Translations under genes and position numbers: made by a program
Notes under the pieces: generated by a model
Seen by the model: only the letters and a program-made list of their open reading frames with translations
Told to the model about the DNA's origin: nothing
The model's database searches: none
In this document: in pieces, positions 45,144 to 64,000 of the stretch
Position numbering within the stretch: the first letter of the stretch is position 1
Layout: every line of letters begins with the position of its first letter
NCBI GenBank assembly: GCA_963662465.1
Contig: OY759599.1
Location: forward strand, 6,208,001 to 6,272,000
Reading direction: 5' to 3'
DNA length: 64,000 nt
Origin: Desulfatiglandales bacterium
GTDB taxonomy: Bacteria > Desulfobacterota > DSM-4660 > Desulfatiglandales > Desulfatiglandaceae

Positions 45144-45204
45144 ATTATCATTCCCCGAATAGATGAGTGGATGCCGGAGGACGGAAGACATCGACCGTAC
45201 CGGC

Positions 45205-45534
45205 TCAGAAATTATATCCTCCGGGTCCATATCCTTCAAGCGCATCTCTCTCGACGGGCACGGCACAATCCCCCGGCACATCAACTCCCCCTGCCACAGC
45301 ATCCAATTCTATTCCGGAAAGTTCCCTATCCAAGGGAGGCAGGGAGGGCAATACCACATGAATTACCTTCTCTGTGTTTTCCAGGAATCTTATTTCCACG
45401 CCTTCGGGAACGTCAATGCCCGCTTCCTTGAGCACGCCGGCGCTGTCCGTCAGAAGCTTTTCTTTAAATGCTTTGTCGGACCAGGCTTTTTCCACCAGTC
45501 TGCCGAACGCTTTTGACGCTTCTTTTTTTTTCAT
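45205..45534 (-). CDS. NHLP-leader RiPP precursor, paralog (core VDVPGDCAVPVERDALEGYGPGGYNF)
   Basis: 105/109 aa identical to 42850-43179. Confidence 0.9.
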   Translation of the reverse strand: MKKKEASKAFGRLVEKAWSDKAFKEKLLTDSAGVLKEAGIDVPEGVEIRFLENTEKVIHVVLPSLPPLDRELSGIELDAVAGGVDVPGDCAVPVERDALEGYGPGGYNF

Positions 45535-45572
45535 AGCGTTTCTCCTTTTATGATTGGTGTGAAGGGTTTACT

Positions 45573-47036
45573 TCATGGGCTTGTGCCCGGTCCGTAAAAC
45601 TTTCTTTGATTTTCCTGTAAAAAAGCAATGTCCGGCGCCTCGAGCCGGTGAAAGATGCAGACGGCCTTTTCAATGGCATATTTAACCCGGTCGCAATAAT
45701 CGTCCACGGGATGGAAAAGATCGCCGTTGGCCGCGCGGTTCACGTAGATACAGCCGCCGCCGCAGAAATGGGCGGCCCAGCATCGGGCGCATTTTTCCAA
45801 TCGCGTGACCATGGCCCTGAGATACGGTTTCCTGTCCGCCACTGTTTCAAACACGCTCCCCATTTTCATTCCGGGGTCTCCGGTGAACAGCGGACAGGGG
45901 AAAAGGTCTCCAGTAACCGACACCCCCAGATACCCTCTGCCGGCGCCGCATCCATACAGGCGTTTTTGTTTTGACATCAAAGCGTAAACATATGTTAGCA
46001 GCATTTTGGAACCGTGCTTGGGGACGCTTCGGTCCCTGATGGCCTCTAAGGTGATATCGGCTTCATGATCCAGAAAGTCAGAAATGTGCTGCCTCTCTTT
46101 CGCTCCTTGGTTTTGCGGCGCCCAGTTGCCGTAAAGGGATGGCATAGCTGGGGTCAGGGTATAGGATGTAAAACCCGTCGACACAATGGCCTCTTTTATT
46201 TGGGGTAGGTCTTTCGCCCTTTTGATGGTCGCCCTGCAGCGGGCCCCGGGGATTTTTGCCAGCAGTTTTTCAACATTTTTCGCAACCGTTTTATAGGACC
46301 CGCGGCCGTTCTTAAAGGGCCGGTTTTCATTCTGGATATGCTCCGGACCGTCAAAACTGACCAGGGGGGTAATGCCATGGGCCTTTAAAAATGCGATCTT
46401 TTCTTCGTCCAGCAATGTGGCATTGGTAGTCATTCCGTATTTCACCTTTTTTCCCAAGGCCTTTCCCTTTTTGTCGGCATGGGCCACCACATGCCGGATC
46501 AACGGAAAATTCATCAGGGGTTCGCCGCCGCCAAAGAGGATACCCACCGACTTTTTTTGGCCGGATTGTGCCATGAGCCAGTCGACGGCCCGTGTCGCGG
46601 TCGCCTCGTCCATTTTCCCTTCACTGCCGCATTCCCCGGTGTTTCCGTAGCAGTAAACACAGCTGAGGTTGCACTGCCGGGTGACATTCATGGTCAGGGT
46701 GACCACGGGTTCCCCGGTGAGTATTTTAATGAGATCATTCATCCCGGGGCTCTTTTCCCCGGGCGGATGGGATAAGGCATCTTCCTTCGGGGCGCCGTCA
46801 ACCAGGCCCATGTTCTCTAGTTTTTCCATGACGGAGGAAGGGACCGGCATGCCTTTATTGAAGCGGATTCGATCCAATGTATCGGCCATCCGGTCGTCAA
46901 TGATCGCACTGGTCATGGCAATTGCGTTCAAAAGATATGAAGTGCCTTCATGTCGGAACAGGTGAAAGGGCGTAAGGGAAACGTTACAAAAGTACGTTTT
47001 TCCGTTGCAATGTATTTCAATATGTTGTGGCAGCAT
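45573..47036 (-). CDS. Radical SAM/SPASM peptide maturase 2
   Basis: CNLSCVYC, GGEP, and SPASM CGAG...FPC...CARCWAAHFCGGGC...C; N-terminal extension of about 100 aa. Confidence 0.9.
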   Translation of the reverse strand: MLPQHIEIHCNGKTYFCNVSLTPFHLFRHEGTSYLLNAIAMTSAIIDDRMADTLDRIRFNKGMPVPSSVMEKLENMGLVDGAPKEDALSHPPGEKSPGMNDLIKILTGEPVVTLTMNVTRQCNLSCVYCYGNTGECGSEGKMDEATATRAVDWLMAQSGQKKSVGILFGGGEPLMNFPLIRHVVAHADKKGKALGKKVKYGMTTNATLLDEEKIAFLKAHGITPLVSFDGPEHIQNENRPFKNGRGSYKTVAKNVEKLLAKIPGARCRATIKRAKDLPQIKEAIVSTGFTSYTLTPAMPSLYGNWAPQNQGAKERQHISDFLDHEADITLEAIRDRSVPKHGSKMLLTYVYALMSKQKRLYGCGAGRGYLGVSVTGDLFPCPLFTGDPGMKMGSVFETVADRKPYLRAMVTRLEKCARCWAAHFCGGGCIYVNRAANGDLFHPVDDYCDRVKYAIEKAVCIFHRLEAPDIAFLQENQRKFYGPGTSP

Positions 47037-47751
47037 GGGTTGCGGCTCCGTTGACTCCACGCACAAGACCGAAAGCCCTCGCGATGGGCTTTGGTCGCTT
47101 TATGACTTGACCGGAATGGCAAACCGATGCTTATGGGAGCCTTCGTGCTGTCGTTCACCCAGACAACGGCGTCCCAGGTAGCCTTCCGGGGTTTTTGTGA
47201 TCTCAGTGTGAGCGGTGAATTTATAGGTTCCGTCACCTTTTTCATCGACGCTGTAGGTCTCGGGGTATCCGTCAGTATTAGCAGAAGGCCGAAGACAGGC
47301 TTTCCTCAGAATCGTCTTTGGTTTTCATCGGAGGATCGGTTTGGCTTCCGGTTTAAATCTGAAACCCGCGATCAAGTTTTTGAAGACGCAGGCAGGACTT
47401 CAGCGGAGAAAGTGAGTTTGCGACAGACTAACAATGTCCACCAGGAGGGGCAAATGATAATTTGAGGATTTTAAGCATCTGAAAACTCCTAAATAGAGAT
47501 TAAGATTTTATTAAAAAAACGAACAATTTTTAATAGAGCAAAATAAAACACACCGTGTCAAGGAAAAAAGGGTCTTCACGAGGGTTCAACGGTCCATGGG
47601 TATAGGTTGAAAAGCTCTTATATCCTTTTTTACAATAAAAGGGAAAATCCGTGCATAGCCAGCAATTCTAATTTTGACCTGAAACAAATTTTCGAGATTG
47701 GTCCTAACTTCGCCCACTCGCACCTCGCGACTGAATTGGCAAGCCTCTGAT

Positions 47752-48049: not shown

Positions 48050-48592
48050 ATGAGAAAAGTGCTCTACATTCTGGGTGGATTGGACGACAACGACGTGGAG
48101 TGGTTGATCGCAAGAGGAGAGCGACGGCGGTTGCCTTCAGGCGAGGTGCTCATTTCCGAGGGGGATATGATTGAGGCCCTTTATATTTTGCTGGAGGGGG
48201 AGTTGGCGGCTTCGGTAAAAACCCATGAGGGTGCCCGTGAGTTGGGCCGCATGGCGGTGGGCGACATGGTGGGGGAGATTTCCTTGGTGGACGACCGGCC
48301 CGCATCCGCAACCGTCACCGTGGTGCGGGACGCGTATGTATTGGCTATCCCCCGCTCGGCGCTGCTGCAAAAACTGGAAATCGAAGTGGGGTTCGCGGCA
48401 AGGTTCTATCACGCTGTGGCCCAGTTGCTCTCCTACCGCCTGCGGGATAACACGGCTCTGATCGCAGGCGAAGGCGGGCCGCCGGTCCCCGAGCTGGAGA
48501 AGGACGAGGACCTTCTCGGCCTGGATGTGTTGGACAATGTGCATATGGCGGGTCAGCGTTTTTCCCGCATCATGCGGCGGTTGGCCGGTTAG
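48050..48592 (+). CDS. Cyclic nucleotide-binding domain protein (type associated with NHLM transporters)
   Basis: MRKVLYILGGLDD..VEWL, and GDMVGEISLVDDRPASATV. Confidence 0.8.
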   Translation: MRKVLYILGGLDDNDVEWLIARGERRRLPSGEVLISEGDMIEALYILLEGELAASVKTHEGARELGRMAVGDMVGEISLVDDRPASATVTVVRDAYVLAIPRSALLQKLEIEVGFAARFYHAVAQLLSYRLRDNTALIAGEGGPPVPELEKDEDLLGLDVLDNVHMAGQRFSRIMRRLAG

Positions 48593-48630: not shown

Positions 48631-48785
48631 GGTTCATCGCGGATTAACGTGAAATCGCGCTTTGAGATTGTTTCGGTTCGGGCTGTAGGTGCGACTTCAG
48701 TCGCACAGGGTCGGCTTAATGTGCGACTGAAGTCGCACCTACAATCGGCTCAGAAGCCAAATCTCACGCGAATCCACGATGAGCC
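48631..48785. mobile_element. MITE-like element containing a GTAG REP doublet
   Basis: Imperfect TIRs GGTTCATCGCGGATTAACGTGA / TCACGCGAATCCACGATGAGCC, with ATCT on both sides and an inner inverted pair at 48684-48743. Confidence 0.6.
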
Positions 48786-48954
48786 ATCTTGGCTCAATGC
48801 GGATTAACGTGAAAAAATGTTTCGCCACCAAGAAAAACCTCAGTGCATTCGTCATAAAGAGTCGTATGTATTCGGAACCCGACGATCCCATGGTTATTTT
48901 TCCCACGTGGTAGGTCAGGGTGCGGCGCGTCCCGTTTTTTCCTCTGACCCTGTG

Positions 48955-49389
48955 GTTGAAACCAAGGGAGACAACGAGCAGCGATATCGGTGGAAGCTGA
49001 TCCTCATTAAAAGACTCTACCGCCAGGGATACGCTAAAGCAGATGTGATCAGGCTGTTTGCATTTATAGATTGGGTCATGTCCCTGCCCGCGGATATGGA
49101 AAAAGGCCTTTGGACGGAAATCCAAAAGTTCGAGGAGGAAACGAAAATGGAATATGTTACCAGCGTGGAAAGAATCGGTATAGAGAAAGGCATGGAGAAA
49201 GGCAGCCTGAATCTTCTGTGCCGTCTCATTGCGAAGCGGTTTAAAACCGGTTCCGAATCGCTTCCGCCGATCTTCACGGGTTTGCGTGCGGAAGATATCG
49301 AAGATCTTGGAGAGCGTTTCCTGGATGCCGAGAGCGTGGATGAGATTCGTCGATGGGCGGAAGAGAAACGCAGGGCGAGGATGCAGTAG
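48955..49389 (+). pseudogene. Rpn/YhgA-like family A copy A1, 5'-truncated; intact internal ORF 49147-49389
   Basis: Near-identical to the 3' part of 56656-57654; GAGGAGG RBS before MEYVTSVERIG. Confidence 0.8.
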
Positions 49390-49713
49390 AGCAGGGACTC
49401 AGCCCATGGATATCTGGGTGGCGCTTTATAAAAAACATCAACGGACGCGGAGCGTCCACCCGGTTGTAATCCTTATCCCGTTCATCCTGTATATCCATGT
49501 TCATTTTTCCATTGGTTCAAGAAATGGTATGCGTTCACGGGTTCATCGCTTCCTTCGGGATACCATTGTGTCGGAGCTGAAGGTGGAAGGTTCGTAGTGT
49601 GCCCGTAAGGCATGGAGTGGACATGCAACCAAACGTCTCACGGCGTCACTACGAACGTCGCAACAGAGCGCATTAACCCCCGGAAAATCCACTTTCGCTG
49701 CCGAATAACCTTA

Positions 49714-49887
49714 GAGCCTGTTTAAAAATTATCCCTGCTGCGGTCGGCTGCGGCTTCCGATGGCTGCGTCAGCGACAAAAATGGGTCTTCAGCGTAGCTC
49801 GACTACGCTTTCAGCCCCATTTTTATCGCTTCCTTGCCCTCGAAAACCTCGCTCAACCTCGCGACGGGATAATTTTTAAACAGGCTT
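49714..49887. mobile_element. 174-bp MITE with 22-bp TIRs and TTA target duplication (IS5-family-like)
   Basis: GAGCCTGTTTAAAAATTATCCC...GGGATAATTTTTAAACAGGCTT flanked by TTA. An empty site with a single TTA is at about 62525. Confidence 0.85.
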
Positions 49888-49914
49888 TTAGAACCGTGGA
49901 CACTGAACCCGTGA

Positions 49915-50238
49915 ATGGTTACAGAAAAAGATAGAGCAAGATATTATGGTACTTCTAAAAAAAGAAACTGCCCCGAATGCGGAGGAGAAATGCATTCCCG
50001 GCTTATCAATCTTCTATATAAAAAAGAGAAGTGCGAAATTCAGGTTGATGTGATCGGAATACCAGCCAATGTTTGTACGAAATGTTTTTACAGAATTATT
50101 CCGGGCAAAATCGCAAAATATATTGATTCCCTGGTTGATCCGATATTTGAATCTGAAATCGGGCAGCAGGAAAAAATACTTCCTGCTCCACATGTAGGTA
50201 TTTGGTTTCTGCCGGCAGAAAGAGAATTTTATTGCTAA
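49915..50238 (+). CDS. YgiT-type zinc finger protein (MqsA N-terminal-like)
   Basis: CPECGGEM...GIPANVCTKC. The start is uncertain; a frameshift in the A run after the ATG at 49946 is possible. Confidence 0.6.
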   Translation: MVTEKDRARYYGTSKKRNCPECGGEMHSRLINLLYKKEKCEIQVDVIGIPANVCTKCFYRIIPGKIAKYIDSLVDPIFESEIGQQEKILPAPHVGIWFLPAEREFYC

Positions 50239-50329
50239 TTTTCAATACCTCTGGCTATTCGTGTAATTCGAGTGTGGTTTTTGGCGCTCGAAGACATTCC
50301 TCTGCCAGGGTGCAGTACTCCCGGGAGCT

Positions 50330-50869
50330 TCCTTGGCATGCCGATCTTTCGGAATACAGTGATGAAGAGATTAAAGGCGCTGTTGTTTTGAGAGTTGTCT
50401 TTCTCCTTTTGAAGCATATTTTTTCAAGCGATCTTCCGGAAAAATTCCCTGGGATTTTGGGTCTGTTAAAAGACCTTCTGAATAAACGAAACGGTCTTGA
50501 ATATCTTGAGACGGTGTTGCGATATGTTAGCTTCAGGGAGTGATCAAATAGGCAGTGTCGAGATTGAGGAGAGCGTTAGACAGGTTTTTTGAAGGTCAGG
50601 GAGGAGATATTATGCCAACAGCATCTGAACAATGGATCGAGCAGGGAATTGAGCAGGGAATTGAGCAGGGAATGCAGAAGGGGGCTATGAAACTTTTGTC
50701 CCGTCAAATTGTGAGGCGTTTTCAGGTCAGCTCTGATTCTGTTCATCCGATCTTTGCCGGCTTAACCACAGAGCAACTTGAAGAATTGGGGGAGAGGTTT
50801 CTTGAAGCTGAAAGTTTGGATGAAATTCAGGCTTGGGCAGAGGAAAAACGGTTGACAAAAGCGCAATAA
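50330..50869 (+). pseudogene. Rpn/YhgA family C copy C1, frameshifted fragment; intact internal ORF 50612-50869
   Basis: DLSEYSDEEI...LLLKHIF...LRYV, then frameshifts; GGAGGA RBS before MPTASEQWIEQGIEQG. Confidence 0.75.
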
Positions 50870-50877
50870 ATTGCCCT

Positions 50878-50902
50878 CGTTCCTACGCTCCGGCGTAGGA
50901 AC
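50878..50902. repeat. REP-like palindrome; empty group II intron target site
   Basis: CGTTCCTACGC-TCCG-GCGTAGGAAC. The paralogous position at 63190/63191 is occupied by an intron. Confidence 0.75.
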
Positions 50903-51059
50903 CCATACCGGGCGGCGTTGACACGCCAGGGCTGAACCCGCCTCCCATGACTTTTTGAAACATGATGTGAAAGTCTTTTTCATACCTTGAAAACCAACAC
51001 CAGCTCCAAGCTCCGAGATCCAAATACGTTGCATATTTGTCTGTCAGGTTTTTCCTCAA

Positions 51060-51300
51060 ACGGCTCACGACCAATTATTGGAACTGCAAAGGGTCTGGTT
51101 TCTGGTGGGGTGGGGGGGGGATGCTTGAGGCAATCCAGCGATTCATCGATACCAATTCCCTCGACGCGGTATTTGATGTTCCGGCCTCGATTATTGAAAC
51201 ATACAAAGACGATTTTGCGAAATATGTAACCCAGTCCGATTTGCTCCGTTTTCATAAGGTGTTTAACTATGTCCCCATGGCCGCCGGCGGTGAAAAAACT
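51060..51300 (+). pseudogene. Internal fragment of an AAA+/DUF4143-type ATPase
   Basis: HDQLLELQRVWFLVG..MLEAI...IETYKDDFAKY, disrupted at a G run. Confidence 0.5.
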
Positions 51301-51477
51301 AGACCTTAGCAGATAGATTCCGTGTTGTGTCTGGAACTTTTGTTTAGTACAGACACACGGATTGATTGACAGAGCCCGTCAAATTGTTCAGAATAAAGTC
51401 AAAATTCATTGATAGGTGGCGCAGACTTTACTGGGTTTCCATTTTGATGCTCATAGAAGAGAAACGGGAGATACGCC

Positions 51478-51969
51478 ATGTCAGAGATTGACAAATGGGA
51501 TGAAGTGTTTGAACAACGCCTGACCGGCTTCTTAAAGGAGCATTTGGCCGAGCTCTTGACCAGCGAAGGCCTGAGTCGGCCTGCCAAGGTTTACGAGATA
51601 GAACTTCGGGAGCGGCTTGTGAGGGTGGAAGAGGCGATTAAACACCAGAGCGAGCTGATCCAAAAGACCCTCGACTTCATGGATGTGCGGTTCGGCGCCG
51701 TGGACAAGCGGTTTGAGGCGGTGGACAAGCGGTTCGAGGCGGTGGACAAGCGGTTCGAGGAATTGAGAGAGGATATGAATACACGGTTCGAGGCCGTGGA
51801 TAAGCGGTTTGAAGAGCTGAGAGAGGATATGAATACACGGTTCGAGGCCGTGGATAAGCGGTTTGAGGCCGTGGATAGGCGCTTCAACTCGTTGCAGTGG
51901 CTGATAGGGGGAGGGTTTACCTTCCTGACCGTCGTTATCGTCCTTATGAAATTCCTCGTCGGCCCTTGA
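51478..51969 (+). CDS. Coiled-coil repeat protein with C-terminal TM (DUF1640/Bdr-like)
   Basis: Tandem AVDKRFE and ELREDMNTRFE repeats, a terminal hydrophobic helix, and a GGAG RBS. Confidence 0.75.
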   Translation: MSEIDKWDEVFEQRLTGFLKEHLAELLTSEGLSRPAKVYEIELRERLVRVEEAIKHQSELIQKTLDFMDVRFGAVDKRFEAVDKRFEAVDKRFEELREDMNTRFEAVDKRFEELREDMNTRFEAVDKRFEAVDRRFNSLQWLIGGGFTFLTVVIVLMKFLVGP

Positions 51970-52159
51970 GTTGCCGCTACGCCATGAATTTGTACCTTCC
52001 TTGAACTGCGCGGGACGTTCATAAGAAACTAAGAAACTCGCCAGGCGTACATTGATTTCCCGCTCGCCGAGGCCGCGTATCGGTTGTTATTCGAAAATTA
52101 TTGCAAAGCGGCTGATTACGACAGTCCGTGGAAAAACGCTTCGGAATGTTATTTCCTCT

Positions 52160-52238
52160 CGTTCCCACGCTCCAGCGTGGGAATGCACTGTGGACGCTCA
52201 GCGCCGTTCGCACCGTTCCCACGCAGAGCGTGGGAACG
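52160..52238. repeat. REP doublet (REPIN-like) immediately 5' of the intron
   Basis: CGTTCCCACGCTCCAGCGTGGGAATG...CGTTCCCACGCAGAGCGTGGGAACG. Confidence 0.8.
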
Positions 52239-54141
52239 GTGCGCCTGTGAAGGCGCTTTATCAGTGCGGTGAAAGTCCGTACCGGAGTATGCCATAGCTC
52301 CGTAGCCGAAGGTAACTGCGTCGCCGCGAGGCGGGGTGGAGAGCAACCGGAGGCGAAAAGTCAGTCCGTAGGATGACGAACCCGATTCGGTGTCATGTGG
52401 TGGCGAGCCTACCGTTCCATGGTGAAGCCTGAAACTCACAGACCACGCTGTAATGGCGGTTAAAGCGATGGTTTGACGGCATGGTATGTTTGGGGTCGGA
52501 ATGACTGGAAGGTAAAGCGAGATAAGCAGGGAGACCTGTCTCTTGGGGTGACAGGAGGCAGGAGTCAGAGTCCTCATAGTACCGTAGCGACAGAACGGTC
52601 CTGCTAACAAGGCTTACGGCGTGAGACCAGTACCCGCCGCCTGCGTCGGATACCGGGTTGTGAAAAGCGCGGATAGCAAAACCGTGCCGAGGGAAGGAGG
52701 ATAGGAAGATAGATACGGAAAGGTCATATAGATGCAGCTAAATCAAGCAGTCTCGGCAGTGTTGGAAACAACTAAACGCGAGGCAGAAACCCGATGGGAT
52801 TGGGTGGAAGCATCGGTGTGGACGGAACGTATGTTGGCAGCCCTGGGTAACGGGGTGAAAGGTGGTAAATGGTACAGTTTGATGGATAAGGTGTTCGCCT
52901 TGTCGACGCTGGAAGCGGCTTGGGGACGTGTCAAAGCCAATAAAGGAGCGGCAGGGATAGACCGTATCAGCATAAAGCGCTTTAAGGAGCAGGCGGAGAA
53001 ATACCTTGCCGAACTGCATGAAACCTTGAAAGCGGGAACGTACCGACCGGAAGCGGTAAAACGGGTATACATTCCGAAAAGCGACGGCAAACAACGCCCG
53101 CTGGGGATACCCACGGTCAAAGACCGGGTAGTGCAGGCAGCGGTTAAAATGGTTATGGAGCCCATATTCGAGCATGAATTTCTGCCGATGAGTTACGGCT
53201 TCAGGCCGCAAAGAGGTTGCAAGGACGCGTTGCGAGAAGTAGACGCGCTTATTAAGGAAGGCTACACCTTCATACTGGACGCCGACCTGAAAAGTTACTT
53301 TGATACGATTCCGCACGATAAGCTGATGCAACAAGTCGAAATGCGCATCAGCGACGGCAAATTGCTCAATCTGATTCAAATGTTCCTGAAACAGGACGTG
53401 ATGGACGGCTTGGAAAGATGGACACCGACGGGTGGTTCGCCACAAGGGGCGGTAGTCAGCCCCTTGCTTGCGAATATTTACCTGCATCCTCTTGACAGCC
53501 TGATCGCGGAATCAGGTATGCGGATGGTGCGTTACGCAGACGACTTTGTTATCCTCAGCCGCAGTCAAACGGAAGCGGAGAATGCTTTGCAAAAGGTACG
53601 GGAGTGGGTACAGGCTAATGACCTGAGCTTACACCCGGACAAGACGCATCTTGGCGACTGTCGACAAAAGGGTCAGGGATTTGAATTCCTGGGATACCGG
53701 TTTGAGGCAGGAAAGCGCTGGATACGCAGTAAAAGCCGTAAAGCCCTTCGTGATAAAATCCGGGAAGAGACCCGGCGCAAACGTAGCGGAAGTATGGAAA
53801 GCATCATTGATGATCTGAACCCCATGCTTGAAGGCTGGTTTGGTTACTTCAAACACGCCTACCGCACTGAGTTTGCGGCGGTGGATAAGTTTGTCCGCCG
53901 ACGCTTACGCGCCGTATTATTGCGTCGTAACAAACGCAAGGGCTGGGGCAAAAGCCTTGAAGCCCACCGCCGCTGGCCGAATGCCTACTTCGCGAAAATC
54001 GGGCTTTTCACTATGCATGAGGCCCGGTTAGCAGCGTGCCGATCCCGATGAGGAAACTATCGACCGGAGAGCCGTGTGCGGGAGAACCGCATGCACGGTT
54101 CGGAGGGAGGGGAGAGCCAAGAGGCTCTTTCCTACCCCTAT
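52239..54141 (+). mobile_element. Group II intron, complete
   Basis: 5' GTGCG; RT ORF; domain V GAGCCGTGTGCGGGAGAACCGCATGCACGGTTC; domain VI ending CCCCTAT. Confidence 0.92.
52732..54051 (+). CDS. ltrA: Group II intron reverse transcriptase/maturase (no endonuclease domain)
   Basis: RPLGIP, SYGFRP, PQG and YADD motifs, and an X/thumb domain (LNPMLEGWFGYF); no HNH. Confidence 0.95.
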   Translation: MQLNQAVSAVLETTKREAETRWDWVEASVWTERMLAALGNGVKGGKWYSLMDKVFALSTLEAAWGRVKANKGAAGIDRISIKRFKEQAEKYLAELHETLKAGTYRPEAVKRVYIPKSDGKQRPLGIPTVKDRVVQAAVKMVMEPIFEHEFLPMSYGFRPQRGCKDALREVDALIKEGYTFILDADLKSYFDTIPHDKLMQQVEMRISDGKLLNLIQMFLKQDVMDGLERWTPTGGSPQGAVVSPLLANIYLHPLDSLIAESGMRMVRYADDFVILSRSQTEAENALQKVREWVQANDLSLHPDKTHLGDCRQKGQGFEFLGYRFEAGKRWIRSKSRKALRDKIREETRRKRSGSMESIIDDLNPMLEGWFGYFKHAYRTEFAAVDKFVRRRLRAVLLRRNKRKGWGKSLEAHRRWPNAYFAKIGLFTMHEARLAACRSR

Positions 54142-54195
54142 AGGGAGTGTAGTGCGTAAAAACGAGTATACTCTCCAACGGTTGTGATTTACACC

Positions 54196-54973
54196 CGTAC
54201 AGCTGTACCGCAAAGACGGCAGCGATGAATGGGTGTTGGCGCACGTGGAAGTGCAGGGGCAGAAAAAGAAACCGTTCCCTGAGAGGATGTACACTTATAA
54301 TTACCGAACATTTGACCTTTTTCATCGGAAAGTAGCCAGTATCGCGATTCTGGCGGATGAAAATCCTTTGTGGCGTCCGGATCATTTCAGTTATGACTTG
54401 TGGGGAAGTCGTGCCGGGCTGTGGTTTCCATGTGTGAAGCTTCTTGATTACCGTGAGAAATGGTTGGAACTGGAGGAGTCGACCAATCCCTTTGCCTCGG
54501 TTGTGATGGCGTATTTAAAGGCGGTTGAAACCAAGGGAGACAACGATCAGAGATACCGGTGGAAGCTGATTCTCATTAAAAGACTCTATCGCCAGGGATA
54601 CGCTAAAGTAGATGTGATCAGGCTGTTTGCATTTATAGATTGGGTCATGTCCCTGCCTGCGGATATGGAAAAAGGCCTTTGGACGGAAGTCCAAAAGTTT
54701 GAGGAGGAAACGAAAATGGAATATGTTACCAGCGTGGAAAGAATCGGTATGGAGAAAGGTATGGAGAAAGGCATGGAGAAAGGCAGCCTGAATCTTCTGT
54801 GCCGTCTCATTGCGAAGCGATTTAAAACCGGTTACGAATCGCTTCCGCTGATCTTCACCTTGGGTTTGCGTGCGGAAGATATCGAAGATCTTGGCGAGCG
54901 TTTCCTGGATGCCGAGAGTGTGGATGAGATTCGTCGATGGGCGGAAGAAAAACGCAGGGCGAGGATGCAGTAG
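54196..54973 (+). pseudogene. Rpn-like family A copy A2, 5'-disrupted; internal ORF 54716-54973
   Basis: Matches A3 from VQLYRK onward. A short 5' piece (ADYDSPWKNA) is stranded at about 52108-52153, before the REP and intron. Confidence 0.8.
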
Positions 54974-55239
54974 TGCAGGGACTTAGCCCATGGACATCTG
55001 GGTGGCACTCTGTAAAAAACATCAACGGACGCGGAGCGTCCACCCGGTTGGGGAGGGTGGCTTCAATTCCGGTTGTAATCCTTATCCTGTTCATCCTGTA
55101 TATCCATGTTCATTTTTCCATTGGTTCAAGAAATGGATAATGATTATGTCGCTGTTCACAGGAGAAGTTCTTCTCGGCACGCAAGCGCCGGTGTTTCATT
55201 TTATTGACAATTCTCTTTAAATGAGCCACAATCGACACC

Positions 55240-56214
55240 ATGGTCGAACATGACAACAGTTACAAGCTTCTTTTTTCCCATGCGGAGATGGTCCGGGATT
55301 TGCTTCTGGGTTTTGTGAAAGAGGAGTGGGTCCGGAAACTCGATCTGGCGTCATTGGAACGGGTGAGCGGGTCCTATGTAAGCGATGATATCCGGGATCG
55401 GCACGACGATATTGTCTGGCGGGTGAAGTGGGGCCGAGAGTGGCTCTATGTGTACATCTTGATCGAGTTTCAGTCAACCATCGATAAATACATGCCACTG
55501 CGTGTCCTGGTGTATGTCGGGCTTTTATATCAGGACCTGATTCGGGAAAAGAAACTGGGACCTTCGGGCAAATTGCCGGCTGTTCTGCCGGTGGTACTGT
55601 ATAATGGGAGCCGGCGCTGGGACAAGTCCACCGAATTGTGGGACCTGATCGAGGATGTGCCTGGGGGGCTATCCCAATATCGTCCCCGGTTCACATTCTT
55701 GCTGCTGGACGAAGGCGCTTACCGGGATGAAGATCTGAAACCGCTTAAGAATCTTGTTTCGGCCCTGTTCCGTTTGGAAAACAGCCGGAACCCGGAACGG
55801 ATCAGGGAGGTGGTAACAGTGCTGTTGGATTGGCTGGCTGCGCCCGAACAGGCGAGTTTGAGACGCGCCTTTACGGTATGGTTTAATCGGGTATTTTTTC
55901 CGTCCCGAGGAAAGGAAATGATACCCCCTGAATTTGAAGAACTGACGGAGGTACGTGCCATGCTGGCTGAAACCGTTGCGGAATGGAAAGAAGAATGGAA
56001 GAGGGATGGGCTGAAAGAAGGCCTGAAGAAAGGCCTGAAGAAAGGCCGGAAGGAGGGTGAAGCGAACATTCTTTTAAAGCTTATTGAGATGAAATTTGGA
56101 CGAATAAGCCTAATAGATCGAAAAAGGGTTCAATCGGCTGACAGTGAAACTCTGTTGAGATGGGGGAAACAAATTCTCACAGCCAACAAAATGGATGAGA
56201 TATTCAGACTGTAA
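55240..56214 (+). CDS. Rpn family recombination-promoting nuclease/putative transposase (YhgA-like), family B copy B1
   Basis: HDNSYKLLF, RHDDIVW, IEFQS and PVVLYNG motifs; G(L/R)K(E/K) repeats; internal GGAGGT RBS with ATG at 55960. Confidence 0.9.
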   Translation: MVEHDNSYKLLFSHAEMVRDLLLGFVKEEWVRKLDLASLERVSGSYVSDDIRDRHDDIVWRVKWGREWLYVYILIEFQSTIDKYMPLRVLVYVGLLYQDLIREKKLGPSGKLPAVLPVVLYNGSRRWDKSTELWDLIEDVPGGLSQYRPRFTFLLLDEGAYRDEDLKPLKNLVSALFRLENSRNPERIREVVTVLLDWLAAPEQASLRRAFTVWFNRVFFPSRGKEMIPPEFEELTEVRAMLAETVAEWKEEWKRDGLKEGLKKGLKKGRKEGEANILLKLIEMKFGRISLIDRKRVQSADSETLLRWGKQILTANKMDEIFRL

Positions 56215-56655
56215 GTCTAAGGAAAATTGGGACAGGCAAATAATGCCTCTATCAGCCCGCCATGTCATGGAACGGAAGTGGGACGTCCATAAAAAGCTAA
56301 AAAAGTCGCCAGGCGTACAATGATTTCCCGCTTGCCGAGGCCGCGTATCGGTTGTTATTCGAAAATTATTGCAAAAGGGAATAGGCTCAGACCTCAATCT
56401 TCTGACAGAATCAATCCCCCTTCCAGCGGGATTAACGGGATAAAAGAAAAAAGGTTATCAGTATACTGAAAATCACGTAAATCCTGTCACAATAACCCGG
56501 TAATATTCAAAAGGGACAGGCCGATAATTTTATATTGGCGACGTGGGCCGAATTCTCCTTGATCTCCATTGCTTCCATCAATTTCCAAACATCAAAAGAA
56601 CCTTGCCCGACCTTGGGATTTCTGATATTCTGGTAGTATATTCAAACTCGAATGG

Positions 56656-57654
56656 GTGGAACAAAAAATGACCTTTGACTCTGAAACGGCTGATTACGAC
56701 AGTCCGTGGAAAAACGCTCTGGAATGCTATTTTCGTGAATGCATTGAGTTTTTTCTTCCTGATATGGCGCAGGATGTGGATTGGGAAAGGGGATGCCTTT
56801 TTTTGGACAAGGAATTTCAGCAGGTGTCCAAAAATGCGGCTGTCGGTCGCAGATATGCCGACAAACTCGTACAATTGTACCGCAAAGACGGCAGCGATGA
56901 ATGGGTGTTGGCGCACGTGGAAGTGCAGGGGCAGAAAAGGAAACCGTTCCCTGAGAGGATGTACACTTATAATTACCGAACCTTTGACCTTTTTCATCGG
57001 GAAGTAGCCAGTATCGCGATTTTGGCGGATGAAAATCCTTTGTGGCGTCCGGATCATTTCAGTTATGACTTGTGGGGAAGTCGTGCCGGGCTGTGGTTTC
57101 CATGTGTAAAGCTTCTTGATTACCGTGAGAAATGGTCGGAACTGGAGGCATCGACCAATCCCTTTGCCTCGGTTGTGATGGCGCATTTAAAGGCGGTTGA
57201 AACCAAGGGAGACAACGAACAGCGATACCGGTGGAAGCTGATCCTCATTAAAAGGCTCTACCGCCAGGGATACGCTAAAGCAGATGTGATCAGGCTCTTT
57301 GCATTTATAGATTGGGTCATGTCCCTGCCCGCGGATATGGAAAAAGGCCTTTGGACGGAAATCCAAAAGTTCGAGGAGGAAACGAAAATGGAATATGTTA
57401 CCAGCGTGGAAAGAATCGGTATGGAGAAAGGCATGGAGAAAGGCATGGAGAAAGGCATGGAGAAAGGCAGTCTGAATCTTCTGTGCCGTCAAATTGCGAA
57501 GCGGTTTAAAACCGGATACGAATCGCTTCCGCCGATCTTCACGGGTTTGCGTGCGGAAGATATCGAAGATCTTGGCGAGCGTTTCCTGGATGCCGAGAGC
57601 GTGGATGAGATTCGTCGATGGGCGGAAGAAAAACGCAGGGCGAGGATGCAGTAG
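56656..57654 (+). CDS. Rpn-like PD-(D/E)XK nuclease with DUF4351-like C-terminus, family A full-length copy A3
   Basis: DYDSPWK, YADKLV and HVEVQ motifs; (GMEK)x4; internal start at 57388. The main start may be the ATG at 56668. Confidence 0.85.
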   Translation: MEQKMTFDSETADYDSPWKNALECYFRECIEFFLPDMAQDVDWERGCLFLDKEFQQVSKNAAVGRRYADKLVQLYRKDGSDEWVLAHVEVQGQKRKPFPERMYTYNYRTFDLFHREVASIAILADENPLWRPDHFSYDLWGSRAGLWFPCVKLLDYREKWSELEASTNPFASVVMAHLKAVETKGDNEQRYRWKLILIKRLYRQGYAKADVIRLFAFIDWVMSLPADMEKGLWTEIQKFEEETKMEYVTSVERIGMEKGMEKGMEKGMEKGSLNLLCRQIAKRFKTGYESLPPIFTGLRAEDIEDLGERFLDAESVDEIRRWAEEKRRARMQ

Positions 57655-57750
57655 AGCTGAGGGACTCAGCCCATGGACATCTTTCCCAAAAACCTCGATT
57701 TAAGTTCACAGATTTCTTGTTTTTCATGACAGAAAACCTGGAAATAAGGT

Positions 57751-57876
57751 ACTAAACAGCTTGAAGAGGAATTCCAGGTTTCGGTGGATGCTTACCTTGA
57801 TTTTTGTAAAGATCTTGGGGAGACTCCAGAAAAACTATATTCAGGGAAGATTGTGTTGCGCTTGCTGCTCAAATAG
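57751..57876 (+). pseudogene. HicB antitoxin fragment
   Basis: LEEEFQVSVDAYLDFCKDLGETPEKLYSGKIVLRL; no start codon. Confidence 0.65.
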
Positions 57877-58175
57877 CCAACCAGAGCCTCAACGTATGGG
57901 CAGCAGAGCATTTGATCAAAAATGCCGAACAAGAACTTCAAAAGCCTTTTTGAAGAAATTGGTTTCCCTGCCTGAGTCTCCGATTTTTCTTGCACATTAA
58001 TAGTATGCCCCTACGCTAAACGCAACATGCACAAAATAGACCCTCTTCCGAGCATCTTCAGGATAAAAAAAGCCTGTATAGTGAAGTACCTTTTATCGGA
58101 ACTTATAGCCACATAAGTTCTGACAATCAGAACCTTATCCTTGACACATCGAGCCTCAGAGTGTATTGAAATTAT

Positions 58176-58481
58176 ATGCACATAATCGCCCGTAACTCAC
58201 TAATTGAATTTGGGGTAAAATATCCGGACGGCAGAACGGCTGTTGACAGGTGGTGGACCATATGCAGAAAAAATACTTTTTGTTCTTTCTCCGACCTGAA
58301 AAAGACATTCGGCACAGCCGATATGGTAAACAGATGTGTTATTTTCAACATCGGTGGCGGAAAATATAGATTGGTGGTAAGCGTCAACTTTGTGGGCCGG
58401 AGAATGTGGGTAAAGTATGTGTTACCCCATAATGAATATGAAAAACTTGATCTGAAGGAGGACTCAAAATGCCGGCCGTAG
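58176..58481 (+). CDS. higB: HigB family toxin
   Basis: MHIIA...DLKKTFGTAD...IFNIGGGKYRLV...HNEYEK. Confidence 0.85.
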   Translation: MHIIARNSLIEFGVKYPDGRTAVDRWWTICRKNTFCSFSDLKKTFGTADMVNRCVIFNIGGGKYRLVVSVNFVGRRMWVKYVLPHNEYEKLDLKEDSKCRP

Positions 58482-58849
58482 ATCGGATAGACTCCAGAGA
58501 TTTATATCCACTGATGGTTATAAGAACCCAGGATGATTACAAAAAGGCACTTGGTTCCATGGAGACTGTTTTTGATGAGGAGACAGGCCCCCTGGCGGAT
58601 TATGCAGAAACACTTGCCATCCTGATTGTGCACTATGAGGAACAGAATTTTCTATTGGAGAAAAAACAGGGGGTGGAAGTCCTGAAGTTTCTTATGGAAC
58701 AGAATGGTCTCAAACAAAGGGATCTGGTGGGGACTCTTGGAGGGAAGTCGACTGTTTCGGAGATACTTAATGGGAAAAGGCCATTGAATCTCCAACACAT
58801 CAGGATCTTGGCAGATAGATTCCATGTTGTGCCTGGAACCTTTGTTTAA
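58469..58849 (+). CDS. higA: HigA family HTH antitoxin
   Basis: LKFLMEQNGLKQRDL...KSTVSEILNGKRPLN; follows the toxin. Confidence 0.85.
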   Translation: MPAVDRIDSRDLYPLMVIRTQDDYKKALGSMETVFDEETGPLADYAETLAILIVHYEEQNFLLEKKQGVEVLKFLMEQNGLKQRDLVGTLGGKSTVSEILNGKRPLNLQHIRILADRFHVVPGTFV

Positions 58850-59047
58850 CACGGACACACAGGCTGACACCGACTTTTTCACCTATCGCAGCTTCTTCCA
58901 TGACGAAGAAACCGGCATCCTTCAAAACAGCTCAAAAGTAGTTTACACTTTTGAAAAGTGAAAGGTGAAAAGTTGACGACTCTTCACTCTTCGGCATCCG
59001 GTGCATGACTTTTCAAAAAAGTGTAAACTGCGAGATGAAGGATGCCC

Positions 59048-59516
59048 ATCGACCAATCCCTTTGCCTCGGTTGTGATGGCGCATTTAAAGGCGGTTGAAA
59101 CCAAGGGAGGCAACGATCAGAGATACCGGTGGAAGCTGATCCTCATCAAAAGGCTCTACCGCCAGGGATACGCTAAAGCAGATGTGATCAGGCTGTTTGC
59201 ATTTATAGATTGGGTCATGTCCCTTCCCGCGGATATGGAAAAAGGCCTTTGGACGGAAATCCAAAAGTTCGAGGAGGAAACGAACATGGAATATGTTACC
59301 AGCGTAGAAAGAATCGGTATGGAGAAAGGCAGCCTGAATCTTCTGTGCCGTCTCATTGCGAAGCGGTTTAAAACCGCTTACGAATCGCTTCCGCCGATCT
59401 TCACGGGTTTGCGTGCGGAAGATATCGAAGATCCTGGCGAGCGTTTCCTGGATGCCGAGAGCGTGGATGAGATTCGTCGATGGGCGGAAGAGAAACGCAG
59501 GGCGAGGATGCAGTAG
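59048..59516 (+). pseudogene. Rpn-like family A copy A4, 5'-truncated; internal ORF 59286-59516
   Basis: Homology to A3 starts at STNPFA. Confidence 0.8.
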
Positions 59517-59782
59517 AGCAGAGACTCAGCCCATGGACATCTGGGTGGTGCTTTGTAAAAAACATCAACGGACGCGGAGCGGCCACTCGGTTGGGGAGGG
59601 TGGCTTCAATTCCGGTTGCAATCCTTATCCCGTTCATCCTGTATATCCATGTTCATTTTTCAATTGGTTCAAGAAATGGATAATGATCATGTCGCTGTTC
59701 ACAGGGGAAGTTCTTCCCGGCACGCAAGCGCCGGTGTTTCATTTTATTGACAATTCTCTTTAAATGAGCCACAATCGACACC

Positions 59783-60841
59783 ATGGTCGAACATGACAAC
59801 AGTTACAAGCTTCTTTTTTCCCATGCGGAGATGGTCCGGGATTTGCTTCTGGGTTTTGTGAAAGAGGAGTGGGTCCGGAAGCTCGATCTGGCGTCATTGG
59901 AACGGGTGAGCGGGTCCTATGTAAGCGATGATATCCGGGATCGGCATGACGATATTGTATGGCGGGTGAAGTGGGGTCGAGAGTGGCTCTATGTGTACAT
60001 CCTGATCGAGTTTCAGTCAACCGTCGATATATACATGCCACTGCGCGTCCTGGTGTATATCGGGCTTTTATATCAGGACCTGATCCGGGAAAAGAAACTG
60101 GGACCTTCGGGCAAATTGCCGGCTGTTCTGCCGGTGGTACTGTATAATGGGAGCCGGCGCTGGGACAAGTCCACCGAGTTGTGGGACCTGATCGAGGATG
60201 TGCCTGGGGGGCTATCCCAATATCGTCCCCGGTTTACATTCTTGCTGCTGGACGAAGGCGCTTACCGGGATGAAGATCTGAAACCGCTTAAGAATCTTGT
60301 TTCGGCCCTGTTCCGTTTGGAAAACAGCCGGGACCCGGAACGGATCAGGGAGGTGGTAACAGCGCTGTTGGATTGGCTGGCTGCGCCGGAACAGGCGAGT
60401 TTGAGACGCGCCTTTACGGTATGGTTTAATCGGGTATTTTTTCCGTCCCGAGGAAAGGAAATGATACCCCCTGAATTTGAAGAACTGACGGAGGTACGTG
60501 CCATGCTGGCTGAAACCGTTGCAGAATGGAAAGAAGAATGGAAGAGGGATGGCCGAAAGGAAGGCCTGAAAGAAGGCCGGAACGAAGGCCTGAAAGAAGG
60601 CCGGAACGAAGGCCTGAAAGAAGGCCGGAACGAAGGCCTGAAAGAAGGCCGGAACGAAGGTCGGAAGGAGGGTCGGAAGGAGGGGGAAGCAAACATTCTT
60701 TTAAAGCTTATTGAACTGAAGTTTGGACCCATAAACCTGAAAGACCGAAAACTGGTTCAATCCGCTGACAGCGAAACCCTGTTGAGATGGGGAAAACAAA
60801 TTCTCACAGCCAACAAAATGGATGAGATATTCAGACTGTAA
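59783..60841 (+). CDS. Rpn family nuclease, family B copy B2 with expanded repeat
   Basis: Near-identical to B1; internal ATG at 60503. Confidence 0.9.
   Translation: MVEHDNSYKLLFSHAEMVRDLLLGFVKEEWVRKLDLASLERVSGSYVSDDIRDRHDDIVWRVKWGREWLYVYILIEFQSTVDIYMPLRVLVYIGLLYQDLIREKKLGPSGKLPAVLPVVLYNGSRRWDKSTELWDLIEDVPGGLSQYRPRFTFLLLDEGAYRDEDLKPLKNLVSALFRLENSRDPERIREVVTALLDWLAAPEQASLRRAFTVWFNRVFFPSRGKEMIPPEFEELTEVRAMLAETVAEWKEEWKRDGRKEGLKEGRNEGLKEGRNEGLKEGRNEGLKEGRNEGRKEGRKEGEANILLKLIELKFGPINLKDRKLVQSADSETLLRWGKQILTANKMDEIFRL
60560..60655 (+). repeat. Perfect 24-nt tandem repeat x4 (EGLKEGRN)
   Basis: gaaggcctgaaagaaggccggaac repeated four times. Confidence 0.95.
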
Positions 60842-61103
60842 GTCTAAGGAAAATTGGGACAGGCAAATAATGCATCTATCAGCCCGCCATGTCATGGAAC
60901 GGAAGTGGGATGTCCATAAAAAGCTAAGAAAGTCGCCAGGCGTACATTGATTCCCCGCTTGCCGAGGCCGCGTATCGGTTGTTATTCGAAAATTATTGCA
61001 GAAGGGAATAGGTTCAGACCTCAATCTTCTGACAGGATCAACTGGATTAACTGGATAAAAGAAAAAAGGTTATAAGTATCCTGAAAATCAAGTAAATCCT
61101 GTC

Positions 61104-62174
61104 ACATTTGACCTTTTTCATCGGAAAGTAGCCAGTATCGCGATTCTGGCGGATTAACGTGAAAAAATGTTTCGCCACCAGGAAAAACCTCGGTGCATTC
61201 GTCATAAAGAATCGTATGTATTCGGAACCCGACGAACCCATGGTTATTTTTCCCACGCGGTAGGTCAGGGTGCGGCGCGTCCCGTTTTTTCCTCTGACGC
61301 TGTTGAATCCCAAATGGGTTGAAATCCATCAAACGACCGAAAAAACTCCAACGCGCCGTTCCCTGACATTTTTGCGACCACCCCAACGTCGCCAATGGGA
61401 TTATCGGTTTATGCCGAATCAATGTCAGGTAATCCCGCGTGTGGACATGTGGGATTTTGAATGTTCATGGGGGTTGGCGTGGAAATCGAAATTTCGCGGT
61501 AAAAATGTGAACGCGGGACAACCTGACCTACTGACTATACAACTTTTCCCCTCCGGGAATGTTTTTACGTCAATCCGCGATGAACCAAAAATCCTTTGTG
61601 GCGTCCGGATCATTTCAGTTATGACTTGTGGGGAAGTCGTGCCGGGCTGTGGTTTCCATGTGTAAAGCTTCTTGATTACCGTGAGAAATGGTCGGAACTG
61701 GAGGCATCGACCAATCCCTTTGCCTCGGTTGTGATGGCGCATTTAAAGGCGGTTGAAACCAAAGGAAACAACGATCAGCGATACCGGTGGAAGCTGATCC
61801 TTATTAAAAGACTCTACCGCCAGGGATACGCTAAAGCAGATGTAATCAGGCTGTTTGCATTTATAGATTGGGTCATGTCCCTGCCTGCGGATATGGAAAA
61901 AGGCCTTTGGACGGAAATCCAAAAGTTCGAGGAGGAAACGAAAATGGAATATGTTACCAGCGTGGAAAGAATCGGTATGGAGAAAGGCAGCCTGAATCTT
62001 CTGTGCCGTCAAATTGCGAAGCGGTTTAAAACCGGTTACGAATCGCTTCCGCCGATCTTCACGGGTTTGCGTGCGGAAGATATCGAAGATCTTGGCGAGC
62101 GTTTTCTGGATGCCGAGAGCGTGGATGAGATTCGTCGATGGGCGGAAGAGAAACGCAGGGCGAGGATGCAGTAG
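61104..62174 (+). pseudogene. Rpn-like family A copy A5, truncated and interrupted; internal ORF 61944-62174
   Basis: A fragment at 61104-61154, an insertion up to 61586, then homology resumes. Confidence 0.8.
61149..61586. mobile_element. About 440-bp non-autonomous element related to the 48631 MITE ends
   Basis: Left GCGGATTAACGTGAAA, right TTTACGTCAATCCGCGATGAACC. It splits a sequence that is contiguous in A2 and A3. A partial copy is at 48791-48948. Confidence 0.6.
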
Positions 62175-62654
62175 AGCTGAGGGTCTCAACCCATGGACAT
62201 CTGGGTGGCGCTTTGTAAAAAACATCAACGGACGTGGAGCGTCCACCTGGTTGGGGAGGGTGGCTTCAATTCCGGTTGTAATCCTTATCCCGTTCATCCT
62301 GTATATCCATGTTCATTTTTCCATTGGTTCAAGAAATGGTATGCGTTCACGGGTTCATCGCTTTCTTCGGGATACCATTGTGTCGGAGCTGAAGGTGGAA
62401 GGTTCGTAGTGTGCCCGTAAGGGCATGGGGTGGGCATGCAACCAAACGCCTCACTGCGTCACTACGAACGTCGCAACAGGGCGCATTAACCCCCGGAAAA
62501 TCACACTTTCGCTGCCGAATAACCTTAGAAACATGGACACTGAACCAGTGAACGGTTACCTAATTTCAAATACCTCTGGCTATTCGTGTAATTCGAGGGT
62601 GGTCTTTGGCGCTCGAAGACATTCCTCTGCCAGGGTGCCGTATTTCCGGGATCT

Positions 62655-63182
62655 TCCTTGGCATGCCGATCTTTCGGAATACAGTGATGAAGAGATTAAA
62701 GGCGCTGTTGTTTTGAGAGTTGTCTTTCTCCTTTTGAAGCATATTTTTTCAAGCGATCTTCCGGAAAAATTCCCTGGGATTTTGGGTCTGTTAAAAGACC
62801 TTCTGAATAAACGAAACGGTCTTGAATATCTTGAGACGGTGTTGCGATATGTTAGCTTCAGGGAGTGATCAAATAGGCAGTGTCGAGATTGAGGAGAGCG
62901 TTAGACAGGTTTTTTGAAGGTCAGGGAGGAGATATCATGCCAACAGCAGCTGAACAATGGATTGAGCAGGGAATTGAGCAGGGAATGCAGCAGGAGGCTA
63001 TGAAACTTTTGTCTCGTCAAATTGTGAGGCGTTTTCAGGTCAGCTCTGATTCTGTTCAACCGATCTTTGCCGGCTTAACCACAGAGCAACTTGAAGAATT
63101 GGGGGAGAGGTTTCTTGAAGCTGAAAGTTTGGATGAAATTCAGGCTTGGGCAGAGGAAAAACGGTTGACAAAAGCGCAATAA
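62655..63182 (+). pseudogene. Rpn family C copy C2; intact internal ORF 62937-63182
   Basis: Duplicate of C1 with the same frameshifts and one fewer IEQG repeat. Confidence 0.75.
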
Positions 63183-63190
63183 ATTACCCT

Positions 63191-64000
63191 ATAGGGGTAG
63201 GAAAGAGCCTCTTGGCTCTCCCCTCCCTCCGAACCGTGCATGCGGTTCTCCCGCACACGGCTCTCCGGTCGATAGTTTCCTCATCGGGATCGGCACGCTG
63301 CTAACCGGGCCTCATGCATAGTGAAAAGCCCGATTTTCGCGAAGTAGGCATTCGGCCAGCGGCGGTGGGCTTCAAGGCTTTTGCCCCAGCCCTTGCGTTT
63401 GTTACGACGCAATAATACGGCGCGTAAGCGTCGGCGGACAAACTTATCCACCGCCGCAAACTCAGTGCGGTAGGCGTGTTTGAAGTAACCAAACCAGCCT
63501 TCGAGCATGGGGTTCAGATCATCAATGATGCTTTCCATACTTCCGCTACGTTTGCGCCGGGTCTCTTCCCGGATTTTATCACGAAGGGCTTTACGGCTTT
63601 TACTGCGTATCCAGCGCTTTCCTGCCTCAAACCGGTATCCCAGGAATTCAAATCCCTGACCCTTTTGTCGACAGTCGCCAAGATGCGTCTTGTCCGGGTG
63701 TAAGCTCAGGTCATTAGCCTGTACCCACTCCCGTACCTTTTGCAAAGCATTCTCCGCTTCCGTTTGACTGCGGCTGAGGATAACAAAGTCGTCCGCGTAA
63801 CGCACCATCCGCATACCTGATTCCGCGATCAGGCTGTCAAGAGGATGCAGGTAAATATTCGCAAGCAAGGGGCTGACTACCGCCCCTTGTGGCGAACCAC
63901 CCGTCGGTGTCCATCTTTCCAAGCCGTCCATCACGTCCTGTTTCAGGAACATTTGAATCAGATTGAGCAATTTGCCGTCGCTGATGCGCATTTCGACTTG
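63191..64000 (-). mobile_element. ltrA: Second group II intron copy (3' part; RT ORF ends at 63281; runs off the right edge)
   Basis: Reverse complement of about 53332-54141; the few differences seen are synonymous. Confidence 0.92.

Follow-up and report, generated by a model that had tools for sequence, protein, structure and literature searches.

The subject here is a 64,000-nt window (G000:C1:6208001-6272000) in the genome of a Desulfatiglandales bacterium, 8.16 Mb in one contig, and in it a tandem array of Rpn-like nuclease genes in which three families (A, B, and C) are interleaved. The window contains three intact copies (A3, B1, and B2) and six broken ones (A1, A2, A4, A5, C1, and C2), and each broken copy retains an open small reading frame at its 3' end. 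I propose that they retain it because decay tends to hit the toxic front end of these genes first. This is probably the right explanation, though I hold it with appreciable doubt, and it goes only so far: target size, the young age of the copies, and their shared ancestry suffice for most of what looks like retention, with selection adding a modest bias. (In coordinates, the prefix C1: denotes the genome contig, while C1 and C2 as members of the array are pieces of family C genes.)

The identification of these genes as Rpn-like nucleases of the gene-within-gene type, made in an initial annotation of the DNA, is borne out by Transposase_31 matches, by a profile comparison between families A and B, by catalytic spacing, and by an internal Shine-Dalgarno sequence (SD) and ATG. 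B1 and B2 match Transposase_31 (PF04754) with 105 and 102 bits, the cut-off being 21, and the remnants of C1 and C2 fall slightly below it (20.1 and 18.7 bits). A3 matches neither PF04754 nor any NCBIfam model, TIGR01784 included, and Pfam recognizes only its DUF4351 tail. PF04754 is weakly matched by 17/100 family A homologs, and a profile of 100 family A proteins finds B1 with a probability of 96% (E 4.5e-9). The spacing of the catalytic residues of RpnA, D11/D63/E82/Q84/R94 (PMC5350276), is kept in B (D5/D57/E76/Q78/R88, as in B1) and in A (D15/D69/E89/Q91/R101, as in A3), and D69, E89, Q91, and R101 are present in all 112 of 112 family A homologs.

Then there is the predicted structure of A3, whose N-terminal domain resembles the repair endonuclease 2vld over 100 aligned residues, with a middling Z of 7.0 and a root-mean-square deviation of 3.2. 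The sequence of A3 gave nothing meaningful against solved structures, and Foldseek, at a threshold of E ≤0.001, matched nothing. The structure-search matches listed did not include that of RpnAS, which is no indication of a different fold. Among viral contigs, 101 pattern matches included zero true relatives. A3 is matched in only 2/60 related genomes, and so there is no orthologous array to compare.

The resemblance to the known RpnL/RpnS system (YhgA-like, COG5464) extends to the PD-(D/E)XK spacing, the internal SD and start, the DUF4351-type tail, the variable four-residue repeats early in the small open reading frame (ORF), the arrays formed by tandem duplication, and the stand-alone small genes. 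Neither arrays nor stand-alone RpnS genes are new (PMC10327210): Zhong et al. described both, the former arising through tandem duplication and the latter carrying DUF4351, along with the internal starts (PMC10327210 / PMC10400941). What differs here is that family A lacks a Transposase_31 or TIGR01784 match, that three families are interleaved, and that the orphan small ORFs come from decay at the 5' end (through miniature inverted-repeat transposable elements, or MITEs, through deletions, and through frameshifts) rather than from clean downstream duplication.

The nine internal ATGs predicted at the outset are all where they were placed (Table 1), each opening a frame of 76-112 aa that runs to the native stop. 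The SD that precedes them is GAGGAGG, GGAGGT, or GGAGGAG, with a duplex energy of -10.8 to -12.2 kcal/mol. The internal methionine, Met245, is kept in 109/112 full-length family A homologs. At loci outside this genome it is present in 72/80, and in 72/72 of those it is preceded by an SD of -5 kcal/mol or stronger, as compared with 5/229 at three other conserved methionines (2/77, 3/76, and 0/76). Codon choice at the internal SD makes it stronger than a null of synonymous codons in 17/17 representatives. Judged by these comparisons, the conserved internal SD and in-frame start are a real trait of the family, kept across distant genomes, and they likely yield a small antitoxin. The part of each gene upstream of the internal start amounts to 72%.

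The family A small ORFs in the array contain four-residue repeats, from 1 to 5 of them depending on the copy, and the A3 model has a long predicted helix at 251-284, with low confidence at 249-263. A scan for promoters found 12 sites against 14.3 expected, no sign of internal promoters. An RNA run (X17) yielded contigs 95-98% like A, B, and the HigBA pair, which amount to a small share of words, are possibly DNA, and provide no evidence of expression. A metagenomic locus (L147:3881-5384) has a family A gene and, directly behind it, another small ORF that stands alone and has more repeats, an arrangement that resembles E. coli rpnE and its downstream copy.

The proposed mechanism is as follows. 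The full-length proteins would be toxic DNases, restrained by the predicted small antitoxin. Selection would act against loss of the small gene from a copy that is still live, whereas damage in the 5' 72% would be tolerated. The orphan small ORF would then drift and be lost later. The weak toxicity that Kingston et al. found in tail-less RpnD (PMC5350276) counts in favor, as does the weakly predicted complex of A3 with the A5 small protein described below.

Across the whole genome there are 21 intact Rpn-like genes and 28 pieces of broken ones, in a census that excludes seven scraps of 49 nt lying in a single repeated element and counts the scrap at 52105 with A2. An SD, a start, and an open small ORF are found in 14/28 of the pieces (six in the array and eight elsewhere) and not in the other 14/28. 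Pieces with an unbroken nuclease but a lost small ORF number 0/28. The initial annotation had counted three live nucleases; the array, followed to its end at about 69,870 in coordinates extended past the window edge (64000), has four that read as intact. For family C, the genome yielded no intact gene. Broken copies are clustered a second time at G000:C1:5413686-5416336 (L002), where two A pieces have small ORFs that are open (with 5 and 3 repeats), a B scrap has none, and the MITE-A junction of A5 recurs.

The 14/14/0 split matches published toxin-first decay of toxin-antitoxin genes. In Photorhabdus, Belot et al. describe a two-step process in which 185 pairs had lost the toxin only, 186 had lost both, and 8 had lost the antitoxin only (PMC13617665). 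In both cases dead toxins with intact antitoxins are about as numerous as pairs with both dead, loss of the antitoxin alone is rare, and the remains cluster in spots of high turnover. The difference is that toxin and antitoxin here share one reading frame, and so a lesion in the tail also truncates the toxin. The word 'Rpn' is absent from the text of that paper, and the literature search found no paper on the position of lesions in Rpn genes.

How much of this could arise without selection? Neutral decay and ascertainment might suffice: the copies are young, the upstream target is 72% of the gene, breaks were duplicated along with the copies, and the window edge hid a counter-example. The relationships among the copies lend this weight. 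One MITE insertion near A nt 376-383 is the common origin of A1, A5, and A7 (the last a scrap past the window): A5 and A7 have in common a deletion junction and the same MITE, while A1 is that MITE fused to A nt 540. C1 and C2 likewise have the same 5' end and the same frame breaks. The six broken copies of the window therefore represent about four independent lineages, the array having been built by segmental duplications, insertions of MITEs and introns, and deletions. Nor are the copies old. They differ from each other at 2-10 positions per 166-183 nt, so that chance alone would be expected to leave the small ORF open (the probability of no stop is 0.61 after 11 substitutions and 0.37 after 22), and even the dead N-terminal remnants of A1, A2, A4, and A5 read through to the small ORF with no stop or frameshift. 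That all lesions fall upstream of the internal starts holds for the six broken copies in the window, though not as a general or strong pattern, and the accompanying statement that every decayed copy keeps its small ORF is right within the window and wrong for the whole array, where A7 has none. The pattern is partly an effect of the window. Retention is not independent and convergent in all decayed copies, given the common breaks, A7, and the 14/28 genome-wide. Retrocopying by the intron reverse transcriptase was considered as the cause of 5' truncation and set aside as unlikely: the junctions inspected showed no poly(A) or target duplication, and several of the breaks trace to MITEs or deletions.

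The polarity of the pieces speaks on both sides. Those with only the 3' end outnumber those with only the 5' end by 13 to 3 (p 0.021, with the 52105 scrap entered as 5'-only), a ratio that becomes 10 to 3 (p 0.09) once each shared event is counted a single time. Of the pieces that retain the 3' end, 10/13 have the whole small ORF, just as target size predicts (p 1.0); other genomes by themselves give p 0.05-0.11 for an upstream bias; and the island also contains scraps of other genes, as neutral decay would have it. What neutral decay accommodates poorly is the absence, 0/28, of an unbroken nuclease without a small ORF, and the lesions pooled from this and other genomes. The latter come from a screen of 80 genome loci, 80 metagenome loci, 12 stretches from 71 rows, and 18 stretches picked among 150 matches listed of 424, one locus (L206) having been dropped as a duplicate of L056. 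In those other genomes, the small ORF survives in 29/34 broken copies. When the point and indel lesions there are added to those of the array genome, 32/36 lie upstream (one-sided p 0.014-0.034), and pooled truncations go the same way, 17 to 5 (p 0.017). On balance, I judge decay that is wholly neutral to be unlikely, though it is the likeliest of the rivals.

Several observations weigh against decay that strikes the toxin first. The copy at C1:92482 keeps its whole nuclease domain and has a frameshift at codon 178, and so nucleases without a tail are at times tolerated. Elsewhere, 5/34 broken copies (L096, L126, L152, L210, and L212) keep the nuclease frame while the small ORF is broken. Point lesions in other genomes alone are upstream in 22/25 cases, not significant when judged against 0.72-0.75 (p 0.05-0.10); the bias in breakpoints that the initial annotation suggested looking for in other genomes is there in direction but not in significance. 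The lesions were tallied by hand, and kin share events. Since events are shared among kin and sequencing errors contribute neutral lesions, the bias can be only modest. The test of constraint, whose outcome is in keeping with toxin-first decay, has low power, most of the differences being older than the breaks. With each of 12 broken copies compared to its nearest intact gene, the ratio of non-synonymous to synonymous change (dN/dS) comes to 0.25 for the small ORF as compared with 0.19 for the dead remnant (Fisher p 0.44); for nine intact pairs, it is 0.19 in the small ORF and 0.13 upstream. Of the alleles found solely in broken A copies, those in the small ORF divide into 6 synonymous and 5 non-synonymous, and those upstream into 12 and 11.

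The initial annotation took a bolder view, that the orphans are a selected bank of antitoxins, small proteins kept to counter resident or incoming Rpn nucleases of other repeat counts. It is not without attractions. None of the six broken copies of the window has lost its SD or start, the A small ORFs of the array cover repeat counts from 1 to 5, and in E. coli stand-alone RpnS is made (PMC10327210). The A5 small protein is weakly predicted to bind A3, at a score of 0.55 versus 0.00 for the best control, with at least 84% agreement in contacts between runs and a partner pLDDT of at least 82, though in calibration the mark was reached at scores of 0.60 or less by 18/157 solved complexes and also by both of the mismatches that passed. 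Against this, a working small ORF is missing from 14/28 of the genome's broken pieces, the orphans are under no detectably stronger constraint than the dead sequence beside them, in a test of low power, and the A4 orphan bears L310P inside a predicted helix. The repeat counts do not fit either. In E. coli a mismatch of a single added repeat abolished neutralization (PMC10327210), and the orphan A copies of the array have 1, 1, 2, and 3 repeats while its intact A genes have 4 and 5, with no match (one orphan outside the array, at C1:5.414 Mb, has 5). Family C has no intact gene to be countered, and the breaks are common by descent, not convergent. A bank is possible but unsupported, and I consider it very unlikely. 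The orphan modules of Rhs loci (PMC7043789) are similar in that 3' gene ends are kept downstream without a conserved front, but in those the toxin tip is kept together with a separate gene for immunity to a delivered toxin. In the present array the nuclease part has been lost, and what is kept is a tail predicted to be the inhibitor.

A more interesting side finding than the bank is that tails, to judge by their sequences, move between Rpn families. C1 (window 50612-50869) and family E have helical bundles that are 83-90% identical, whereas the N-terminal part of family E is about 20% identical to those of other families, and the C remnant is 57% like families D2/D3 of this genome and 24% like E. 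The bundle of 23/56 family A homologs resembles that of C1 more than that of A3, by a margin of 15 points or more. Overall the bundle is 75-92% identical across otherwise unrelated Rpn-like families (C, E, and many A homologs), and the changeover falls at the 12-nt repeats. (The loci compared, besides that of C1, are G000:C1:8058410-8059249 and 4505799-4506740, and proteins P0007-P0032.) Within family A, 47/91 informative site pairs among eight copies fail the four-gamete test, intact copies included.

Might exchange of this kind be what the orphans are for? They could serve as donor cassettes, a recombination library of 3' ends from which repeat number and bundle are swapped onto live nucleases, changing antitoxin specificity. 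The failed site pairs and the likeness of the C1 bundle to those of E and many A homologs would be in keeping with this, but gene conversion is expected in any tandem repeats, neither direction nor benefit is seen, and no constraint was found on the orphans. I think it distinctly unlikely. The related idea of a working library, in which orphan tails would be expressed as antitoxins differing in repeat length and, through recombination at the 12-nt repeats, would be joined to live nucleases of unrelated Rpn families and reprogram their specificity, seems quite unlikely too, if a shade less so. The exchange of tails between unrelated families may be useful, or it may be a by-product of the repeats. 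For the orphans themselves, toxin-first decay is the explanation I prefer.

It might be thought that the array is an artefact of assembly, but as the principal account this was rejected. The copies are not identical, as already noted, and contigs from runs X1 and X2 (one sample) carry unique junctions, including one of 51010 to 57808 that exists only beyond the window. Their depth is about 36-43 on the unique parts of the window, rising to 77, near a two-copy value, for HigBA, and to 400-500 for the intron (13 copies in the assembly). No read or contig bridges the whole array.

Table 1. Coordinates of the array and its surroundings (window numbering; "extended" continues that numbering past 64000; A nt, nucleotide of the family A gene)
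Feature	Position	Strand	Remarks
MITE, 155 bp	48631..48785	.	37 full genome copies, mostly with 8-bp target duplications
MITE of ~445 bp, first 163 bp	48791..48953	+	deletion-fused to A1
A1, family A	48954..49389	+	5'-truncated, from A nt 540
A1 small ORF	49147-49389	+	80 aa, 2 repeats
107-aa protein	49915..50238	+	two CxxC motifs; zinc-ribbon matches weak
C1, Rpn copy	50235..50869	+	5'-truncated and frame-broken
C1 small ORF	50612-50869	+	85 aa
Fragment matching PADLOC PDC-S01	51037..51309	+	profile positions 194-251 of 439
Scrap of A nt 29-77	52105..52154	+	behind deletion; taken as 5' piece of A2
Group II intron	52239..54141	+	behind palindromic repeat; reverse transcriptase/maturase ORF 52732-54051; 13 near-identical genome copies
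A2	54193..54973	+	from A nt 210; without D15 and D69
A2 small ORF	54716-54973	+	85 aa, 3 repeats, one extra in-frame codon
B1, intact Rpn	55240..56214	+	Transposase_31; internal ORF 55960-56214
A3, intact family A nuclease	56656..57654	+	internal ORF 57388-57654, 4 repeats
HigB-like toxin and helix-turn-helix antitoxin pair	58176..58849	+	second copy past window, 65612-66285
A4	59047..59516	+	from A nt 494; small ORF 59286-59516, 76 aa, 1 repeat, L310P
B2, intact Rpn	59783..60841	+	internal ORF 60503-60841, 112 aa
A5	61104..62174	+	scrap of A nt 325-375, MITE 61149-61590, then A nt 377-999
A5 small ORF	61944-62174	+	76 aa, 1 repeat
C2	62560..63182	+	duplicate of C1, same breaks; small ORF 62937-63182, 81 aa
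Group II intron, second copy	63191..64000	-	to 65093 extended
BrnT/CopG-like pair	past window edge		within array
A6, intact family A gene	68093-69103 extended		past window
A7, scrap	69361-69419 extended		A nt 325-383, then MITE; without small ORF

The surroundings of the array are rich in mobile and broken elements. The 13 group II intron copies lie for the most part directly behind the same palindromic repeat, with one in tandem behind another copy, and this targeting of hairpins resembles that of class IIC introns. Two MITE families, with 37 and 4 full copies, have a common terminal repeat and mostly 8-bp target duplications; both are presumably ISL3-like. The island contains many broken genes of toxin-antitoxin appearance, PDC-S01/DUF4143 fragments among them, as well as the scraps of other genes. 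Scraps at 57748-57873 and at 65220-65300 and 69870-70200 (extended) read like HicA/HicB genes, a tentative assignment. The 163-aa protein encoded at 51478-51969 matches no specific family; it is of coiled-coil type, repeats a seven-residue unit internally, and ends in a hydrophobic C-terminus. Outside the array, two radical SAM/SPASM genes lie around a 109-aa leader protein like the alpha subunit of nitrile hydratase (43746-47066, minus strand, and 48050-48592, plus strand), adjoined by a cyclic nucleotide-binding protein of bacteriocin-type transport. The radical SAM/SPASM genes and leader likely constitute a cluster for a ribosomally synthesized and post-translationally modified peptide.

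What do the broken copies tell us about Rpn genes? The gene-within-gene design extends to the divergent family A, with an internal start conserved in distant bacteria. There is evolutionary rather than experimental support for the view that Rpn-like genes decay as toxin-antitoxin pairs do. Nature has supplied a series of copies with 1 to 5 repeats on a single nuclease background, which offers a ready test of the rule that repeat length sets specificity, and the exchange of tails, if it is functional, would explain how the specificity of Rpn proteins diversifies.

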